From an uncultured delta proteobacterium (GTDB lineage: Bacteria > Myxococcota_A > Polyangia > Polyangiales > Polyangiaceae), in assembly GCA_963850305.1 (NCBI GenBank), contig CAWKKR010000009.1:1-64000 (forward strand): 64,000 bases of DNA. The letters are read 5' to 3'. Numbering within the stretch: the stretch's first letter is position 1; the number at the start of each line of letters is the position of its first letter. The notes beneath the pieces are model-generated. The model was not told where the DNA came from and ran no database searches. It saw only the letters and a program-made list of their open reading frames with translations. The position numbers were made by a program, and so were the translations under genes. Shown here piece after piece: positions 3,253-41,134 of the stretch.

Positions 3253-3891
3253 ATGCAGCTCCGATCCGTCGTCGAGCGGTCGATCGCCTGGGTCGTGAAC
3301 CATCCGGAGGACGTACTCGGTGCGGCGAAGAACGCCCTCGGTCTCCGTCTGACCGTACCCCTCGATGTCCTCAGGTTCCTGGCGTCGCAAGCGAAGGGGA
3401 GGCGCGCACCGGCGGACGTCATCATCGACGCCGCTCCACCCGGGCTTTCGCTCGGCGCCACGCTCGACGTGATGAAGACGAAGCTCCGCGCGACCGCGTC
3501 CGTGCACGTCGACGAGGTTCGGATTGGGCGGGGGGAATTCCGGCTCGTAGTGCGCTTGCGCGACGTCGCGCTGTCGGTCCTCGGGCAATCGGACAGTCCG
3601 GTCGCGGCTTTGATCCGCTCGGGGGCGGTAGACCTGAGCAAGCCTGGAAAGCTCGTTGCCATTCTGCCGAAGCGCCCGCTCTTCATCGTGGAGGCGGACG
3701 ACGACCGCTTCGTCCTCGACCTCATGCGAGATCCGAACCTGGCGAGGAAGCTCGGGAAGGTCGTTTCGCTGGTGACACCCCTCGTCACCGTGAGCGCGAT
3801 CGAGTCCACCGGCGACGCGCTCGCCTTTCAGCTGTCGTGCCTGCCGAACGGGCTCATGAGTGCGCTCGGCTCGCTCAGGACGGCGCGCTGA
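3253..3891 (+). CDS. Hypothetical protein
   Basis: Open frame with GC3-biased codons from ATG 3253; TATACT lies just upstream. Confidence 0.7.
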   Translation: MQLRSVVERSIAWVVNHPEDVLGAAKNALGLRLTVPLDVLRFLASQAKGRRAPADVIIDAAPPGLSLGATLDVMKTKLRATASVHVDEVRIGRGEFRLVVRLRDVALSVLGQSDSPVAALIRSGAVDLSKPGKLVAILPKRPLFIVEADDDRFVLDLMRDPNLARKLGKVVSLVTPLVTVSAIESTGDALAFQLSCLPNGLMSALGSLRTAR

Positions 3892-5567
3892 GGGCCTTCG
3901 GTTCGCGATCGCCCCGAAGAAATGCGTGAAGCCGCTCGAGGGTGAAGGGTCGCGAGTACGCCCACAACATGAGCAGGCCCATCGTGTAGAAGAGATAGCT
4001 CTCCGCCGTGTACTGATCGTCGATGAAATAGAAGCTGCGCAAGATGATCTGGCTGGCGCCTGCGGTCACGAGGAGCGCCGGCGCGAGCGCCGGCACGGGC
4101 AAGATCAGCGGAATCGTGATCAGAAACATGCAGTAATAGTAACAAGTCAGATTCGTCAGGGAGATGACGAGGGGGATGGACAGTCCCGCGGCGATCCAGA
4201 GGGACTTCGTCCGACGGAGCGCCCAGATCATCCAGAGAAGAACCGCGCCGCTGATCGCCAGGAAGATCGGCATTCGCTGGTGGAAGCGATCTTCGCGGCC
4301 TTGCTTCCAGAGCTGGAACGGGTCATCGAGAGTCGCGTCGCGCGTGAAGCGCATGCGGCCGCGCCACGTGTGCACGAGCATCGTCTCGAGCCCCATGTGA
4401 TTCGTGAGCGGGGTCCGGTTGTGAACGCGGATGTGCGCGATGAAGTTTCGGTAAGACTCGGGCCCGGCGACGGCCACGCTCGCCGGAATCAGCAAACCCG
4501 CCGCGATGATGCATCCCCCGATGACACGCCGATGATCGGGATGCAGTGCTCGCTTCTTCACGAGATGAATCGCCATCACGATGGCCCAGCCGGCAAAGGC
4601 GATGAGCGGAAACACGCGGAGCAATGACGACCAGGTGAGCGCCGCGCCGGATAGGGCAAACTTCCGTTTTCGCGCAAGGCACATCGCCGCGACCATCAGA
4701 AACACCCAGTCCTGACGCAGGAACGCGCCGCCGGTCCAGTAGAAGTTCGCGGGCGCGTTCGTGCCCCAGAAGACGCTCGCCACCGCCATCACGCGCCACC
4801 CGAAAGCCCACCCCATCATGACCAGCGCGCCGATCTGAAGCCCGATGTCGAGCGTGGAGAGAAGCTTGAAGAACGTGTCGCCGGCGGAGCCGAGACTCGA
4901 GAACAACTTGCCCTCCGCGGTCCAGACGGGGGGAGGGTTGTATCCGTGGTCTTGCTGCATGTTCTCCCAGTAGTTGCCGCGGGAGACGCTCTCGAACCAC
5001 GCCACGTCTTTCTTGAAGGCCGTCCATTCAGCCGGCGAAAAGCGCTTCTTGCACTCGTTCGGATTCTTGAAGACGTTCGTTTCCGTCACCGGACGGATGA
5101 GGTTCACGGTCAGATCGCGGATCTCCCGCTTCTTCACCTCCGCGCCGTGGCCGTTCTCGACCTCCGCCACCATCGTGCACTCGTAGAGGTGCGTGTAACC
5201 GAGCGCGTCCGAGTACTTGGCGCCGAGGTAGTAGTGATAAAATTCGTGCCGGTGGTAGTAGTTGACGTACCTGACGTTCGGGTTGAAGAAATCGGAAATA
5301 GGTGAAAAACCCGACGATCGTGAAAGCGATGCCGATGCGCCTCAGCGTCTTTTCGGGGAGCCGTTCGCCGAACTTTCGGGCCCGCGCCTCGATGAGGAGC
5401 AATCCTGCCGCAACGAGCGCGAGCCCGATGCGGAAGAAGTCCATCGCATGCTCCCAGTTATCGTGGGCGAATATGTCCGTTCCGAGGAACCGGAAGCTCC
5501 ACGGATGAAAGAGGAAGTCGAAGGGGTTCAGTGACGCGGCGAGCGCGATGGTGTGGGAGAAAAGCAT
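3875..5567 (-). CDS. Multi-pass membrane protein, GT-C/GT87-like glycosyltransferase candidate (frameshift near 5295)
   Basis: Joined frames give ...YFDFFNPNVRYVNYYHRHEFYHYYLGAKY...HGYNPPPVW...WTGGAFLRQDW with many hydrophobic helices. The GYNPPP motif resembles the GT87 YxYPP motif. One extra base at ~5295. Confidence 0.65.
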
Positions 5568-5619
5568 TGGCTCCGGATTGTCCGCGACCTCTCGGACGGT
5601 GCGGCGCGGAGGGTAGTCC

Positions 5620-5661
5620 AAGAAAGAAAGGCCGGGTGCGTCACTTCGCACCCGGCCTTTC
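5620..5661 (-). terminator. Intrinsic terminator
   Basis: Perfect 15-bp inverted repeat (5626-5640 / 5647-5661). On the minus strand it reads as a GC stem followed by TTTCTTTCTT. Confidence 0.8.
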
Positions 5662-6062
5662 CGTTATCGCCCCTTATCCAGGCTTTCGTCGCGGTGGCTG
5701 CTAAGCGGGTCACCCCCGAGGGCGCGACCCAGGCCGAGCGAGCATCCGTCCTACCAGGTGGGGCTTGCACCTCCCGCGCTCGCGCGCGGGGCAGGACGGC
5801 AGATTACCCCGGACGAACCTCCAGGTTAGGGGAACAACTTAATTGCATGCTGCTGCCACCTCCTCCGGGTTGCCCCGGACACCCCTGCGGGCTCTCGCCC
5901 CGATACGAGGCGCCTACCACGCGGCAAACGCGAGAGCATCGAAGCGCAAGCCTCGGTGCGGGGTGTTTCCTGCTTCGAGCCCGATTGAACGCGGGCTCCT
6001 CCGTCTAGTGCAGAGCGCCGGGGTGCTCCCCAGCCGGCCAATTCCGAGAGCAAGGCTCTTCC

Positions 6063-6079
6063 CTGCACGTTGGTTCAGA
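6063..6079 (+). promoter_or_regulatory. LexA-box-like site
   Basis: CTGCACGTTGGTTCAGA, two mismatches to the Myxococcus xanthus LexA consensus CTRHAMRYBYGTTCAGS. Confidence 0.4.
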
Positions 6080-6220
6080 ACTAACACGCTTCTCCGCGAC
6101 TCGCCAAAGGATCCCGGCGCCCGGCACTAAAATATCACGCAGACGCGATAAATCCGGGCCTTGGCTGCCTTGACCCCCGCCGGTTTGACAGCCTGGCGGG
6201 TCAGGTTGAAGGCAACGTGG

Positions 6221-6973
6221 GTGCGTCGCCGTCGACCGTTCGGAACCTTCCTAGAGACTGGCTGGACGCCCTTCGACCAGCGACTGTTTCTCCGGACGGT
6301 CGCCGCTGGTCTTCTCGCGTGGGTCGCGTGCGCCGGCGTCGTGGTCACCACCGACGAGGCCACGAGCACGCTCGGCATGCGCGTCGCGCGGCTCGCGGCT
6401 CTGACGCCACTCGTGGCGGCGGTCGCGGCGCTGCTCGTCACGGCGCACGCCCGCGTCCGGGGCGAGTTGCGGGCGCTCGAATCGCTCGGGCATCCACCGT
6501 GGATCGCGGCACGCGGCGCGGCCGCGGCGGGAGCGATCCTCGTGCTGCTGGGCGCCGCTTTCCTCGTTTCCCCCTTGGCTGACGCTTCGAGTCTGTTCCC
6601 AGCCGTGCGCGCCGCCGTCGATTGGCACGTCGATGCAGGCGGATTCGTCGCGCGCGCGGCCGGCGTGGTGCTCATGGATGACGGCGCCGTCCACGTTCAT
6701 CGCGCGTCGGTGGTGGGAAGAGCGCCGTCCATCTCCGCGTGGGCCGCACTCCCTTCGCTCGGAACGATTGGCCTCGCCGTCCCGTCCTGGGCCGTCACTC
6801 CCATTCGGCTCGCGTCGCGGCTCGCGAGCGTGGGGCTCACGTTCGCGTTGGTGGTCACGGGGCTGCACCTGGTCGCCGCAGGCCGAGCGCCGGCGTCCGT
6901 TGGATTTCTTTCCGCCGCGCCGTTATTTCTGACCACTGCGCTCGCCAGGCGCGCCGCGCGAGACCGAGGTTAA
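6221..6973 (+). CDS. Short, divergent LptF/LptG-like membrane protein
   Basis: About six TM segments; RGELRALESLG resembles the LptF/G coupling helix (xELxAxxAxG); short beta-rich loop between TM3 and TM4. Start is uncertain. Confidence 0.55.
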   Translation: MRRRRPFGTFLETGWTPFDQRLFLRTVAAGLLAWVACAGVVVTTDEATSTLGMRVARLAALTPLVAAVAALLVTAHARVRGELRALESLGHPPWIAARGAAAAGAILVLLGAAFLVSPLADASSLFPAVRAAVDWHVDAGGFVARAAGVVLMDDGAVHVHRASVVGRAPSISAWAALPSLGTIGLAVPSWAVTPIRLASRLASVGLTFALVVTGLHLVAAGRAPASVGFLSAAPLFLTTALARRAARDRG

Positions 6974-7742: not shown

Positions 7743-7843
7743 CTCGAAGTCCGGACCCTTGCGGTCCGCCTTCAGGGAGTACGAGTCAACGGCCCGGCAG
7801 ACGCCACCAAGAGCAACTTCACGTCGAGCCGGGCCGGGGCGAG

Positions 7844-7917
7844 TCGGGGTGACTGGATTTGAACCAGCAACAACCTGCACCCAAAGCAGGTCCTCTACCA
7901 AGTTGAGGTACACCCCG
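7844..7917 (-). tRNA. tRNA-Pro (anticodon TGG), CCA not encoded
   Basis: CGGGGTG acceptor stem, CCTC/GAGG D-stem, anticodon arm CCTGC-TTTGGGT-GCAGG, T-loop TTCAAAT, discriminator A; extended -10 TGcTATAGT upstream. Confidence 0.95.
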
Positions 7918-35436: not shown

Positions 35437-36174
35437 ATGGCTTTGCCAGCACATCTCCTGGAGAGACTCCCTGCTGAACTGCAATGCGGACAGAACATTG
35501 CCCAGAAATCCATGGGGTTTCTGCCTTTTGGGCTTCCTGGTATGGATGAGGTTTTGCCGGATCGGGGGATCCCGCGCGGAGCCGTCGTGGAACTTGCGGT
35601 TTCGGGAGGGGTATCGCTTGCGACCTCTCTTGCTCTAGCCGCGTGTCGAACGGCTCAGAAAGAAGCAACGCTTTGCGGCGGAGAAGTCCCCTGGTGCGCA
35701 TTCGTCGATCCGTCAGCGACTCTTTACGCTCCCGGCGTCGTGGCTGCTGGCGTCAAATTGGATCGTCTTCTCGTCGTCCGGCCTTCCATGGAGGCACTGG
35801 AGCGCACGGCCATCCGTCTGGTGGGGTCCCACGCGTTTTCGATCGTCGTCGTGGACACGATGGGCGTTCCGGGGAGTGGCCTCAGCGTCGCGCTGGGTGC
35901 TTGGCCAAGAGTCATTCGTAGACTCACGCTTTTGGCAGAGGAGTCGAGCGGGTGCGTGCTGCTCGTCACGGACGGTGAAGTGCGTCGCCCATTGCCACTC
36001 CCCGTCGCAATGCGGCTGGAACTCGCGCGGCCTTCTCAAGATCGCTTGTGGGTTCGAGTCGCAAAAGATCACCGCGGCAGGGTCACAGTGCCGCGTCTCG
36101 TCACCTGGGCGAGGCCACGTGCCAAGCCTCTCAGCATCGCGCCAGAGGGGGAGCAGAAAGCGCAGGCGTCGTGA
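35437..36174 (+). CDS. imuA: ImuA (RecA/SulA-like mutagenesis protein)
   Basis: GIPRGAVVEL with degenerate Walker A, AFVDP, LDRLLVVRP; first gene before imuB-dnaE2. Confidence 0.85.
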   Translation: MALPAHLLERLPAELQCGQNIAQKSMGFLPFGLPGMDEVLPDRGIPRGAVVELAVSGGVSLATSLALAACRTAQKEATLCGGEVPWCAFVDPSATLYAPGVVAAGVKLDRLLVVRPSMEALERTAIRLVGSHAFSIVVVDTMGVPGSGLSVALGAWPRVIRRLTLLAEESSGCVLLVTDGEVRRPLPLPVAMRLELARPSQDRLWVRVAKDHRGRVTVPRLVTWARPRAKPLSIAPEGEQKAQAS

Positions 36175-37802
36175 TGGAGTCCGCAGCACGGCGGATCATC
36201 GCCATCGTATTGCCGAACCTACTGTGCGAACTGGTGAGCGTTTCGTTCGGAGCTCCTCGAATTCGCTCTGCGGATGCGTCGAAGCACGAGAGGAAGGTTC
36301 GAACACCGCCGCCGCTTGCCGTCCTCGTGGTGGATGAACAGCCCCAAGAGGCGATCGAAACGAACGTCACCATCGATGCAGTGAACCCATCGGCGAAGAA
36401 ATGTGGCGTTCGGGTCGGTCAAACCGTAGTCGAAGCTCGGGCCTTTGTCGGGCATCTCGTTGTGCGTGAGCTGCCGCGAGAGTGCGTGCAAGCCCGGCTC
36501 GGAGAAATTGCGGAGATGACGCTGAGCTTCGGGCCTACGGTTTCCATAGAAGCTCCGGATACCGTATGGGTGGACGTTACGGCTGCCGCACACCTGGCTG
36601 GAGGAGAAGAGGCTCTCTTGCTAGAGCTGGTTGCACGGGTTCGAGGGCTCGGGCATGCGGCGAACGTTGCCGTCTCGGACGGGCCGCGTCTCGCGCAGGC
36701 GTTCGCTCGCTTCGGACGAATGAATGTAGAAGGGTGTCTCGTCGTCCCTCGAAATGAAACGGCGTTTGCCCTTGGAACATTACCCCTGCAGGCGCTCGGT
36801 CTGGATGGGGAACGCGCGGCTTGGTTTGGGCGGCTGGGTGTACTCACGGTTCGCGAGCTGAAGCAGATTCCTCGCGGAGCGACTGCATCCCGTATCGGCA
36901 ACGACGCAGGGCGTGTGCTCGACCTGGCCGAAGGGAAGGACGACTCGCCGCTCGTGATGTATTCGCCGCCCGCGTTGCCCCAAGAAGAAACGATATGGGA
37001 CGAGCCAGTTTCCGGAATCGAACCGCTGCTGTTCGTACTCCGCGGTCTCGTTTCGAGATTGAGTGCGCGACTCGAAGGGCGAGGCGAGGCGGTGCAAGCA
37101 CTCACCCTCATCGTCCTTCACGATCGTGCGACGGCTCGCTTCGAAGGCGTCGCAAAGGAGACCGTACTCTATTTCGAATTTGCCTCGCCGCTCTATCGAC
37201 CCGAGGAGCTCACACGGGTACTTTCTTCTCGGCTCGGCCGACTCGATTTCTCTGCTCCGTCCGTGGGGTTGCGGCTGGAAGCGAAAGCCATCACGCGTGC
37301 TCTCGCTCTCCAGCTCGCGCTGTCCCGTTACGCTGCGGGTCTTGGCGGAACTGCGACGAAAGGTCCGGAGACTCTCCCCGTCGTTCTTGCGGAACTCGTT
37401 GCCGATCTCGGAAAAGAAAAGGTTGGAGTTCTCCGGCTGGAAAATTCGCATCGACCGGAGAAGAAAAGTCGTCTCATCGCCGTCGATCCCATGAGCAAAA
37501 GAACGCAGCCCCGACCGAGAACTGCGGAAGCTCAAGCTACGCCCTCGAGACTTTTGCTACGAGCAGTGCCGGTCGAGGGGCCTTTACGACGAGGCACGAC
37601 GCTCTCTCTCGATCACCGGCTTTACACGGTCGAACGAGTGGAGTTCGATCACCGAATCGCCTCGGTGGAGTGGTGGACGGGAGAGCCAGTCACGCGCGAC
37701 TATCTTCGGATCTGGCTTCAAGGGGCGAGTGGGGGGTTAGAGGTTATCGCCTATGTCGACAGGAAGAACCTAACTCGAAGGATTCAAGCTATTTGCGATT
37801 GA
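36174..37802 (+). CDS. imuB: ImuB (inactive Y-family polymerase-like protein)
   Basis: AVNPSAKKCGVRVGQ, FGPTV, QLAL clamp-binding-like motif, C-terminal EWW...RDYLR. Confidence 0.88.
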   Translation: MESAARRIIAIVLPNLLCELVSVSFGAPRIRSADASKHERKVRTPPPLAVLVVDEQPQEAIETNVTIDAVNPSAKKCGVRVGQTVVEARAFVGHLVVRELPRECVQARLGEIAEMTLSFGPTVSIEAPDTVWVDVTAAAHLAGGEEALLLELVARVRGLGHAANVAVSDGPRLAQAFARFGRMNVEGCLVVPRNETAFALGTLPLQALGLDGERAAWFGRLGVLTVRELKQIPRGATASRIGNDAGRVLDLAEGKDDSPLVMYSPPALPQEETIWDEPVSGIEPLLFVLRGLVSRLSARLEGRGEAVQALTLIVLHDRATARFEGVAKETVLYFEFASPLYRPEELTRVLSSRLGRLDFSAPSVGLRLEAKAITRALALQLALSRYAAGLGGTATKGPETLPVVLAELVADLGKEKVGVLRLENSHRPEKKSRLIAVDPMSKRTQPRPRTAEAQATPSRLLLRAVPVEGPLRRGTTLSLDHRLYTVERVEFDHRIASVEWWTGEPVTRDYLRIWLQGASGGLEVIAYVDRKNLTRRIQAICD

Positions 37803-37805
37803 TTC

Positions 37806-37833
37806 TTGATACTAAGCACCCGTTCAGTATATT
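37806..37833 (+). promoter_or_regulatory. Internal promoter with LexA box upstream of dnaE2
   Basis: TTGATA-16 bp-TATATT; the spacer carries CTAAGCACCCGTTCAG. Confidence 0.7.
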
Positions 37834-37843
37834 GTGAACCCCC

Positions 37844-40800
37844 TTGTTTTCGGAGCTCCTCGGGCAATCCGCGTTTTCGTTCCTCAGGGGCGCGTCGAAG
37901 CCGGAAGAAATGGTGGAGCAATCGAAGGCGCTCGGACACAGCGCTCTCGGTTTGTGTGATCGCAATGGCATTTACGGCGTCGTGCGCGCGTTTGCGCAGG
38001 CGCAAGAAATCGGACACCGGTTGATCGTGGGCGCGGAAGTATCGCTTGCGGTCTCGAAACGGAGGATGGAGCGGACGGAGTTGCCGACACGGGCGCGTCA
38101 CGTTCGCGTCGAGCATTTCGACGCGCCGACGCTCGCACTGCTCGTACGCGATTCGAGGGGGTACGAAAATCTTTGCCGTCTTCTGACTAACGCTCACGCA
38201 GATTTGCCGAAAGGTGAAGCAGTTCTCGATTTGAAGACACTCGCGGTGCATCAGGAGGGGCTCGTTGCAGTGGTGCCTGGTGCGACTTATCCCGGAGCTT
38301 CCGATACGCCACCCGAAGAACTCTTCGACGTCCTGATCGACGCATTCGGTCGTGACCACGCGTACGTCGCTGCGTTCCGGAGATTCGACGGACATGACGC
38401 TGCTCGACTCGAATCGGTGGAAGCCTGGTCGCGCCGGTACGGCCTTGATGTCGTTGCGAGCGCGCGCCCGCTCTATCACTCGCCGGACAGGAAGCCGCTC
38501 GCGGACGTGATGCATTGTATCCGGAAAAGAACCACGCTCGACCAAGCTGGGCAAGAACTCGGGCCCAATGCAGAGGCGTATCTGCGCGCCGAAGAAGGGA
38601 AGGGCGGGATGCGAATTCTCTTTCGTGAGCGCGAGCACTGGGTCTCGCGTGCCGGAGAGGTCGCGAATCTGTGCGTATTCTCTCTCGATCGGATCAAATA
38701 CGAATTCCCGTGCGAGCTTTCGCCGGGTGAGACCGCAGATGAGGCGCTCGAGCGACTCGTCGAAGAAGGGGCGCAGCGTCGGTATCCGAGTGGCGTCCCT
38801 TCGAACGTGGGAGCACAAATCGACAAGGAGCTTCGCTTGATCGCGGAACTAGAAGTGGCTCCGTATTTTTTGAGCACGTACGAAATCATCGAGATGGCGC
38901 GGGCCAAACGCATCTTGTGTCAGGGCAGGGGTAGCGCGGCGAACAGCGCCGTCTGCTACGCGCTAGGCATCACCAGTGTCGATCCAGCCCGTAGCAATCT
39001 CCTGTTCGAGCGCTTCCTGAGCCATGAACGCCGCGAGCCTCCGGACATCGACGTGGATTTCGAGCACGAACGCCGCGAAGAAATCATCCAGGAGATTTAC
39101 GAGCGCCATGGTCGCGATCGCGCCGCGATGGTGTCGGAAGTGATTTCCTATCGGGGAAAGAGTGCGCTCCGCGAGGTAGGACGAGCGTTCGGCCTCTCGA
39201 GCGAACAGATCGAGCGATTGAGTGGGCTCCTCACACACTGGGATTCACTCGATGAGAAGGAAATTCGCGCCGACGCTCTCGGGTTCGACATGAACGATCC
39301 GCGGGTTCTCGAGATCTTCAAGAGAGCGAAGGAACTCGAGGGGTTTCCCCGGCATCTGTCCATACACGTGGGCGGGTTCGTTCTCTCCGCGCGGTCGCTA
39401 TCCGAAGTCGCTCCCGTCGAACCGGCGCGCATGAAGGGGAGAACCGTCATCCCTTGGGACAAGGACGACATCGACACATTGCGGTTCTTCAAGGTGGACG
39501 TGCTGGGCCTCGGGATGCTGTCGGCGATCAGAAAATGTCTCGCGATGATCCACGACGATGGGGTCCTCCATGCCGAGTCCGCAACGAGGCCAGACGCGAA
39601 AGGCGCCCAACCAAAAATCGAAGAGAGATTCGACCCTATCGACGTGCTTGCTCGAGTTCCGAGCGAGGATCCGGCGGTGTACCGGCTCGTTTCGGAAGCG
39701 GACACGGTGGGGGTTTTTCAGATCGAAAGCCGTGCGCAGATGGCGATGCTGCCCCGTCTTCGACCACAGAGATTTTACGATCTCGTCGTCGAAGTCGCGA
39801 TCGTGCGTCCGGGGCCGATTCAAGGGGGAATGGTCCACCCGTATCTTCGCCGACGAACGGGGAGTGAAGCCATCACGTATCCACACGAAAATCTCGTACC
39901 GATTTTGAAACGGACGCTCGGCATCCCGCTCTTCCAAGAACAGGTGATGCAGATCGCCATCACGGGCGCAGGTTACGGCGGGGGCGAGGCAGATCAGCTT
40001 CGTCGGGACATGGCGGCATGGAAGAAGAGCGGCAAGCTACTCCGGCATCGAGAGAGGTTGCTCGAAGGGTTCGCGAGATCCGGCATCTCACGGCAATTTA
40101 GCGAAGCATTGTTCGAGCAAATCAAGGGATTCGGGGATTATGGGTTTCCCGAATCGCACGCGGCGTCCTTTGCGGTGCTCGTCTACGCATCGGCCTGGCA
40201 GAAGGCTCATTTTCCCGCTCATTTCGCCTGCGCCATTTTGAATTCACAGCCAATGGGATTTTACTCGCCGTCGTCGCTGGTGAGGGACGCGCAGAAGCAC
40301 GGTGTCGAGGTTCGGGAGGTGAACGTCGTCTCCAGCGGGTGGGATTCGATGCTGGAGGCTCCGAGCAAGGCATGTCGCGTCAAGAGCGTGTTCCCGCAAG
40401 CTCGGAAGTCGCTGCGCCTCGGGCTTCGGCTCGTCAAGGGGCTCGGGGAGAGGACAGCGCGAGCCATCGAGAAGGCTCGCGAAGAGTGCGCCTTTTCGAA
40501 CCTTCACGATCTCGTGCTGCGAGCGAGGCTCGAGAAAGACGAAGTGGAGGCACTCGCGGAAGCTGGCGCGCTCGAAGAACTGGTGCACGGAAGACGACAG
40601 GCGCTTTGGTCGGCGCGCGCCCCACGTACGGAAGGACTCTTTGCCCGTCAAGATACGTCCGAACCGGCTGTGACGCTCCCCGCGCTTTCTCCCATGGATC
40701 AGTTGCTCTTCGACTATGGGCGGACCGGTCTTTCGGTGAGCGACCATCCGCTCCGACACGTCAGAGAAGAGCTGTGCAGAAAGAAAATCGTCACGATGGC

Positions 40801-41134
40801 GGAGCTTCAGAACACGAACGAGGAGCGAGCAAGCGTCGCTGGTCTAGTTTTGACGAGGCAGCGGCCTGGAACGGCGAGCGGCATCGTGTTCATCACGCTC
40901 GAAGACGAAACAGGCATTGCGAACCTGGTGCTCTATAGTCGTGTGTTCCACGAGCATCGCGTTCTCGCGCGTCAAGCTCCGCTCCTCGTCGCTCACGGCA
41001 AGGTGGAGCGCCATGTGACGGAGGCGCGTCCCGGAGAATTCGGAGCTACGACACCGATCGTGCATCTTCTGGTCGAAAAGTTGGAGCGACTCGATATTCC
41101 GGGCATCGAAAAGTCGTCGCGCGATTTCCACTGA
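37844..41134 (+). CDS. dnaE2: Error-prone DNA polymerase DnaE2
   Basis: [39 protein letters not shown]-terminal SRDFH signature. Confidence 0.97.

Follow-up and report, generated by a model that had tools for sequence, protein, structure and literature searches.

The window analyzed here comprises the first 64,000 nucleotides of contig CAWKKR010000009.1 (assembly GCA_963850305.1) from an uncultured delta proteobacterium of the family Polyangiaceae. On its minus strand, upstream of a gene for a GT87-like membrane protein, lies a unit which comparison with its relatives identifies as a conserved and folded RNA gene. It is approximately 450 nt long, has a terminator of its own and a predicted promoter, and carries an open reading frame (ORF) of 14 codons (Table 1). 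An earlier note had proposed an undescribed large non-coding RNA at this place. Conservation, covariation, the lack of an Rfam match and contigs from metatranscriptomes speak for an undescribed large structured RNA, but strictly non-coding it is not. In a search of the source genome the stretch was found to be single-copy.

Table 1. Features of the RNA gene and its surroundings (window positions)
Feature	Position	Strand	Remarks
RNA	5620..6071	-	~452 nt; 5' end predicted, 3' end is the terminator; fold z -5.47
Putative -35-like element TTGGCG	6102..6107	-	TTGGC/CTGGC aligned in 8/9 sequences
Putative extended -10-like element TG-n-TAGTTC	6078..6086	-	GTG-n-TA invariant in 9/9
Candidate LexA (SOS)-type operator	6063..6078		overlaps the -10 and the predicted start; one clade only
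5' four-way junction	6008..6068	-	P1 6068-6062/6013-6008, P2 6059-6047, P3 6046-6035, P4 6034-6017
Hairpin P5	5977..5998	-	variable sequence; 7/7 pairs; in fold; seen by eye in homologs
Helix P6	5879..5966	-	5966-5960 with 5885-5879; encloses a variable stem-loop domain
Hairpin P7, CCGG-loop-CCGG	5865..5878	-	abuts the Shine-Dalgarno sequence; sequence almost invariant
Shine-Dalgarno AGGAGGU	5858..5864	-	complement of the 3' end of the source genome's 16S rRNA
14-codon ORF MQLSCSPNLEVRPG and stop	5804..5848	-	5' strand of helix P8
Internal SD-like GGAGG	5818..5822	-	11 nt before the stop codon
Variable 3' domain	5683..5803	-	genus-specific; holds the CUCG hairpin and three-way junction of the earlier note
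P8 3' strand	5663..5682	-	pairs with ORF codons 4-9
Intrinsic terminator, GGCCGGGUG stem and U tract	5620..5660	-	hairpin in fold
GT87-like (GT-C-like) membrane protein gene	3875..5567	-	neighbour outside the unit, downstream of the RNA

The 510 nt delimited in the earlier note are indeed packed with helices, as their minus strand folds with a z score of -6.32, which was equalled by 0 of 100 shuffled sequences, and the choice of the minus strand is borne out by its better folding compared to the plus strand (z -3.63). The RNA itself is shorter than the ~510 nt given there, and the 5' arm of the helix 6006-6022/6113-6129 falls outside the predicted transcript. Folding of 5620-6071 gives a structure which agrees with the comparison of homologs, and RNA lengths within the Polyangiaceae range from 320 to 642 nt with a median of 432 nt (78 RNAs). 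In an alignment of nine sequences, conservation opens at TTGGC (6107), followed by GTG-n-TA (6087-6082) and then by the RNA; the start at ~6071 was placed 6–7 nt past the -10. Most of 24 homologs keep the -35-like element at equal spacing, and TGnTA stands near the start in 89/97 homologs, a partly circular count as ~55 of them had their start placed by TGnTA. The conserved promoter thus predicted at 6107-6102 and 6086-6078 replaces the TGaTATTTT motif that had been suggested before. A scan of 5300-6500 for consensus promoters and terminators, which overlooked both the real promoter and the real terminator of the RNA, returned no promoter on either strand. Upstream of the promoter there is also a G+C-rich inverted repeat (6168-6204) with a weak match to abiF (E 1.1).

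Homologs were gathered by several routes. Starting from the neighbouring protein gave 30 loci, to which sequence matches added three, and the RNA is present in 24 of these 33. A pattern scan of GTDB returned 91 loci, of which 50 were judged real by profile score and 41 were dropped as chance. When 151 Polyangiaceae genomes were searched with a covariance model built from just the 5' domain, 75 of them matched, each with a single match except for one genome; among the 52 of 76 matches that were read, 46 show the full anatomy (including three variant Shine-Dalgarno sequences read by eye and two loci cut by contig ends), four are duplicates and two (L200 and L204) were dropped as chance, one of these being the second match. 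L213 and L214 were dropped as chance as well. With a rebuilt 5' model there were matches in 14/23 family genomes, and family f7 contributed one real copy; a model of P7, Shine-Dalgarno sequence and ORF brought up shorter forms from further families of the class (18/25 loci read are real) and one homolog, L253, from another class. A search of the phylum, from which 14 loci were read, yielded two homologs within the class, L253 and eleven chance matches. Among 28 genomes of the family of L253, judged by E value, there was no other match better than E 0.002, and L253 may be sporadic or mis-binned.

The collection amounts to 112 distinct homologs (distinct ORFs), 91 from Polyangiaceae, 20 from ten other families of the class, which we take from the GTDB hierarchy to be Polyangia, and one from outside, all of them kin, so that counts over them overstate independence. 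As the distant homologs were chosen by visual inspection, with the short ORF as one criterion, they are not an unbiased sample of it. Real homologs occur once per genome. All six other genomes of the source genus match at 73–81% identity, 3/54 more distant genomes show short matches, and cultured Polyangiaceae probably carry the RNA. Ten viral pattern matches were considered as possible viral copies and rejected, none of them having the anatomy of the RNA. The class-wide core is P6-P7-SD-AUG-short ORF-GGAGG-stop-P8-terminator, with a 3' domain that varies freely.

In 38 homologs 91% of the cells of the four-way junction are paired and 15/21 pairs have changed on both sides, compared to 40–52% for slid controls and 0/500 shuffles as good; left out of this test were L030, two incomplete homologs and 14 whose inserts are large or whose domains diverge. 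P1 is its weakest helix (81% paired), and a single-sequence fold of 5620-6071 reproduces the junction. Helix P6, which is preceded by a purine-rich GAA linker, shows compensatory changes and pairs 6/6 in 57/112 homologs versus 4% for shuffled and 16% for swapped strands, a count in which some 5' strands were mis-picked. The four pairs of P7 are kept in 111–112/112 homologs. In P8 the ORF serves as the 5' strand and pairs with the strand just before the terminator (5682-5663); the own partner beats shuffled strands in 40/48 and swapped strands in 36/48 cases. Across families P8 beats the swapped mean in 16/19 representatives, in six of which the own partner is the best of all, and is weaker than the swapped mean in three. 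The distance from stop codon to terminator varies from 20 to 263 nt in the 19 representatives, and the terminator stem shows compensatory changes among homologs.

Several stems named in the earlier note were confirmed base by base, namely 5977-5983/5992-5998 and 5879-5885/5960-5966 with 7/7 pairs each and 5746-5755/5790-5799 with 9/10 pairs and one G-U; the GCAA hairpin at 5865-5878 has a stem of 5/5, and the hairpin of the terminator (5620-5661) is present in the minus-strand fold. Two long-range helices fared differently. The pairing 6006-6022/6113-6129 exists in the sequence (15/17 Watson-Crick pairs and one G-U) but is not conserved, with -35 kcal/mol in the source genome versus -6.6 to -16.0 in 8/8 relatives; being private to the source genome, with its 5' arm upstream of the -35, it was rejected as a closing helix. 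The helix 5693-5701/5852-5860 has 8/9 pairs in the sequence but is absent from both minimum-energy folds and appears in alignments of the source genus only, the conserved long helix being that of the ORF with 5682-5663. In L248 and L265, the P7-SD model weakly matches a stretch of 16S rRNA, presumably the helix 40 region, which resembles P7 and the Shine-Dalgarno sequence; mimicry of rRNA is a lead, and a chance likeness to a Shine-Dalgarno sequence is equally likely.

Although no convincing protein ORF had been seen at the locus before, the Shine-Dalgarno sequence (5864-5858) and the 14-codon ORF (5848-5804) are among its most conserved features. A Shine-Dalgarno-like 9-mer occurs in 112/112 homologs, with 17–22 nt between the 3' arm of P7 and the start codon; in equilibrium folds the Shine-Dalgarno sequence is unpaired to 35% on average, which is not above the whole RNA (32%). 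Translation would start at ATG in 109 and at GTG in three homologs. The ORF spans 12–21 codons, and 12–16 codons in 103/112 homologs versus 9.6% in shuffles. As the model of the 5' domain contains neither Shine-Dalgarno sequence nor ORF, the loci that it found allow an unbiased test, and here 39/41 closed ORFs have 12–15 codons. Stop codons are TAG in 74, TGA in 24 and TAA in 14 homologs, with TAG making up 17% genome-wide. Within the ORF, AGT encodes 30/32 Ser, TGT 33/33 Cys and GAG 47/47 Glu, while genome-wide these codons account for 4.5, 16 and 71% of the codons of their amino acids. The codons, including rare ones, are fixed at the nucleotide level. Four loci (L183, L191, L193, L194) have the motif out of frame, and their ORF still counts 13–14 codons.

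A GAGG whose end lies 8 or 11 nt ahead of the stop codon was found in 82/112 homologs compared to 47/1354 long ORFs of the source genome; 17/112 ORFs lack GAGG and 13/112 have it at other spacing. In 15 of 22 length-variant ORFs it stands 11 nt from the stop codon and therefore tracks the stop rather than the start. The internal GGAGG pairs with CCUCC in P8 in many clades and for this reason may be kept for structure. With a mean GRAVY of -0.69 (maximum 0.41, n=112), the encoded peptides are hydrophilic; they drift and differ across families, while the length of the ORF and its ribosome signals are kept.

Relatives of the RNA are present in eight soil and leaf-litter metatranscriptomes from eight studies. 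Among the 23 pieces listed of 24, 22 lie within 5622-6056 and none crosses 6071, and contigs of three datasets (X3, X4, X6) end at ~6056-6061. One contig (depth 2.8) runs on from 5622 with an A-rich tail which is apparently non-templated, as the genomic DNA of the relatives read does not match it. The contigs, which hint at a discrete RNA but do not prove it, are unstranded and come from runs chosen with 5400-6400, RNA contigs only being considered; coding DNA of the relatives may be below 80% identity, so that bare flanks are no evidence of silence.

The GT87-like gene contains a one-base frameshift near 5295 in this assembly, possibly an assembly error, and is intact in relatives. By its features and predicted fold the protein resembles GT87 clusters, an assignment to be taken as a lead only, and searches of Pfam and NCBIfam returned nothing for the GT-like, the lipoprotein-like and the upstream membrane proteins. 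A small basic ORF, which starts with MSNRALWNVRL in L034, recurs near the locus in several genera (L034, L038, L042), where it is located upstream of the GT-like gene. In L044, L090, L100 and L114 there is a conserved upstream block of an asparaginase-2 gene, a membrane protein and a lipoprotein-like ORF, the last of which is absent between the RNA and 6161 in the source genome. Farther away in the window lies a tRNA-Pro(TGG) at 7843-7917 (-).

The candidate LexA-type operator at 6063-6078 deviates by one mismatch from the first 16 positions of the delta-proteobacterial consensus CTRHAMRYBYGTTCAGS, as given in bioRxiv 2020.12.14.422803. Eight sites with an exact GTTCAG reach one mismatch in the source genome, the box of the RNA among them; the SOS boxes of dnaE2, lexA, recA1 and recA2 have 1, 2, 2 and 4 mismatches. 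A box with at most two mismatches stands at a fixed place in 31/97 homologs and, because it is found in these only, SOS control of the RNA looks like an addition of one lineage. The window also holds imuA-like, imuB-like and dnaE2 genes at 35503-41134 (+), with an SOS-type box (37812-37827) directly before dnaE2, and at G000:C8:399284 a further SOS-type box (one mismatch) separates two divergent ORFs, one Ku-like and the other LigD-like by sequence.

A covariance search of Rfam 15 gave four matches, the best with E 0.023 and none anywhere near the gathering score, and for five distant homologs there was no Rfam match for the RNA either. RNase P, tmRNA and SRP, whose hallmarks the earlier note did not see at the locus, have their canonical copies on contigs C1, C7 and C8, respectively, and an SRP-like reading of the GUCCGG...GGA..GCAGC stretch was given up with the SRP on C8. 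A replacement of 6S RNA was considered and rejected, since 9/11 family genomes, carriers of the RNA included, have 6S; the source genome showed no 6S match and no room for 6S after zapA. No match to CsrA was found in the source genome (95% complete), and a Csr/Rsm sponge was discarded on this ground and as the GGA motifs of the four-way junction and P7 are mostly in stems of the fold. Both tmRNA (RF00023) and the RNA are structured with a short internal ORF and, as may be supposed for the latter, act on the ribosome, but the RNA has no tRNA-like domain and entry would occur by Shine-Dalgarno sequence and AUG. With OLE, ROOL and GOLLD it shares the size class, many covarying helices and an open function, but it carries a Shine-Dalgarno sequence and an ORF in 320–642 nt with variable inserts and lacks an Rfam match; the likeness to OLE and ROOL drawn earlier does not extend beyond size. 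Pxr of Myxococcus xanthus, described from Cystobacterineae with three stem-loops and a predicted sigma-54 promoter (PMC5684412), is likewise a myxobacterial RNA gene, whereas the RNA has no Rfam match. No published description was found; the main texts of two large motif surveys (PMC8632094 and PMC11109978) lack all six myxobacterial terms looked for, and the supplement of the latter may list such a motif. Each RNA family compared has at least one defining trait that the RNA lacks.

The class-wide features all face the ribosome while the peptide drifts. For this reason we tentatively favour, at somewhat less than an even chance, that the RNA works as a ribosome decoy, loading and holding ribosomes, and not via its peptide. 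Since the Shine-Dalgarno sequence and the AUG are outside P8, a 30S subunit could load, and P8, starting near codon 4, would slow entry to elongation. Unwinding of P8 by the ribosome would then expose the internal GGAGG. At the very moment at which the stop codon occupies the A site, this GGAGG would base-pair with the tail of the 16S rRNA and delay release or recycling. The RNA would thereby park or meter ribosomes, and its level would increase on DNA damage in the clade that has the LexA-type box. Strong 16S pairing 9–22 nt before stop codons is selected, holds ribosomes at the stop and lowers read-through according to bioRxiv 2020.07.24.220731; pausing at internal Shine-Dalgarno-like sites is disputed (PMC4943179). 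Against ribosome holding, a single-copy gene may yield too little RNA to sequester ribosomes, and the model leaves the four-way junction unexplained.

That the RNA is an attenuating leader of the GT-C-like gene, as suggested in the earlier note, is very improbable and largely refuted, even though Shine-Dalgarno sequence, short ORF and terminator precede the GT87-like gene on the same strand in 42/112 homologs. In the others the RNA is followed by tRNA-Gly (15) or an opposite tRNA (1), lies divergently from a GT gene on its upstream side (7) or stands in other contexts (36), eleven loci being too short, and several GT orthologs have no RNA upstream. Furthermore, the GT87-like gene has its own -10-like TACCCT at 5615-5610, and TA[ACG]CCT follows the terminator in 19/39 GT-linked loci. 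In folding models of 25 RNAs the terminator has a mean pairing of 0.98 in each of three states, free, with an initiating ribosome or with the stop region blocked, and in 20 RNAs the ribosome state leaves the nascent 5' arm as it is. The trpL and hisL leaders are ribosome-mediated leader-peptide attenuators. The RNA shares with them a short ORF whose translation, not its product, seems to matter and a terminator downstream, but it has no fixed downstream gene, antiterminator or regulatory codon run, and its terminator is insensitive to ribosome position in the models. The downstream gene varies and the modelled terminator ignores the ribosome, which argues against an attenuator; together with the confinement of the RNA contigs to the unit, this argues for a stand-alone RNA. 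The RNA might also be a type I toxin mRNA under SOS induction, of the kind of tisB, which is LexA-repressed (PMC13159721), or dinQ, with which it shares a LexA-type box at the promoter (in one clade), a long structured leader and a small ORF. This we consider barely credible, as the peptides are short, hydrophilic and unconserved, most homologs lack the box, and neither multiple copies per genome nor viral copies were found; moreover, the Shine-Dalgarno sequence and AUG are not locked by a conserved helix as in tisB/dinQ.

In a translation-gated riboregulator, passage of the ribosome would open P8 and set processing, stability or the exposure of a strand acting in trans on mRNAs or protein. 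Across families the ORF is locked in P8, a folding model of the source genome's RNA rearranges its 3' half once the stop region is blocked, and Hfq-independent sRNAs act in M. xanthus (bioRxiv 2025.09.11.675593). We nevertheless regard this as unlikely, given that there is no conserved seed (the 3' domain is unconserved, and changes in the P8 3' strand follow those in the ORF), that neither Hfq nor CsrA was matched in the 95% complete source genome, and that switches between the Shine-Dalgarno sequence and an anti-Shine-Dalgarno element were rejected as no better than controls, both with the 3' strand (27/48 and 21/48 versus swapped) and with the C-rich linker (42/87 versus shuffled). The RNA could also be a tightly controlled mRNA for a functional peptide of 13–16 residues. 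SgrS/SgrT, RNAIII/hld and rnTrpL/peTrpL are dual-function sRNAs with a small ORF and, like the RNA, stand-alone transcripts with Shine-Dalgarno sequence, small ORF and intrinsic terminator. Start, stop and frame are kept, length changes in whole codons (+1, +7), Glu stands near the end in 47/48, and changes between close pairs fall mostly on third positions (38 versus 23 and 25). Conservation is at the nucleotide level, though, with 50 non-synonymous versus 20 synonymous codon changes in close pairs, frame-slipped variants giving unrelated peptides and peptides differing across families; unlike the dual-function sRNAs, the RNA has an unconserved peptide and an ORF paired with its own 3' strand, and no conserved seed, Hfq match or Rfam similarity was found. 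A functional peptide is thus distinctly improbable.

The reading that the RNA holds ribosomes can be extended to a dedicated, class-wide ribosome trap, in which the Shine-Dalgarno sequence loads, the helix over a content-free mini-ORF slows and the second Shine-Dalgarno sequence holds at the stop, so that Polyangia would park or throttle ribosomes by RNA alone, with a connection to the SOS response in one lineage; in this full form it is doubtful, if conceivable. Conserved ribosome-facing parts with a drifting peptide fit none of the families tested, and the retention of the RNA as one copy in at least 11 families of a class, without an entry in Rfam, suggests a core function that has gone unrecognised. 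If the RNA holds ribosomes, it would represent a new RNA-based translation control and offer a natural test of whether Shine-Dalgarno pairing at a stop codon delays release.
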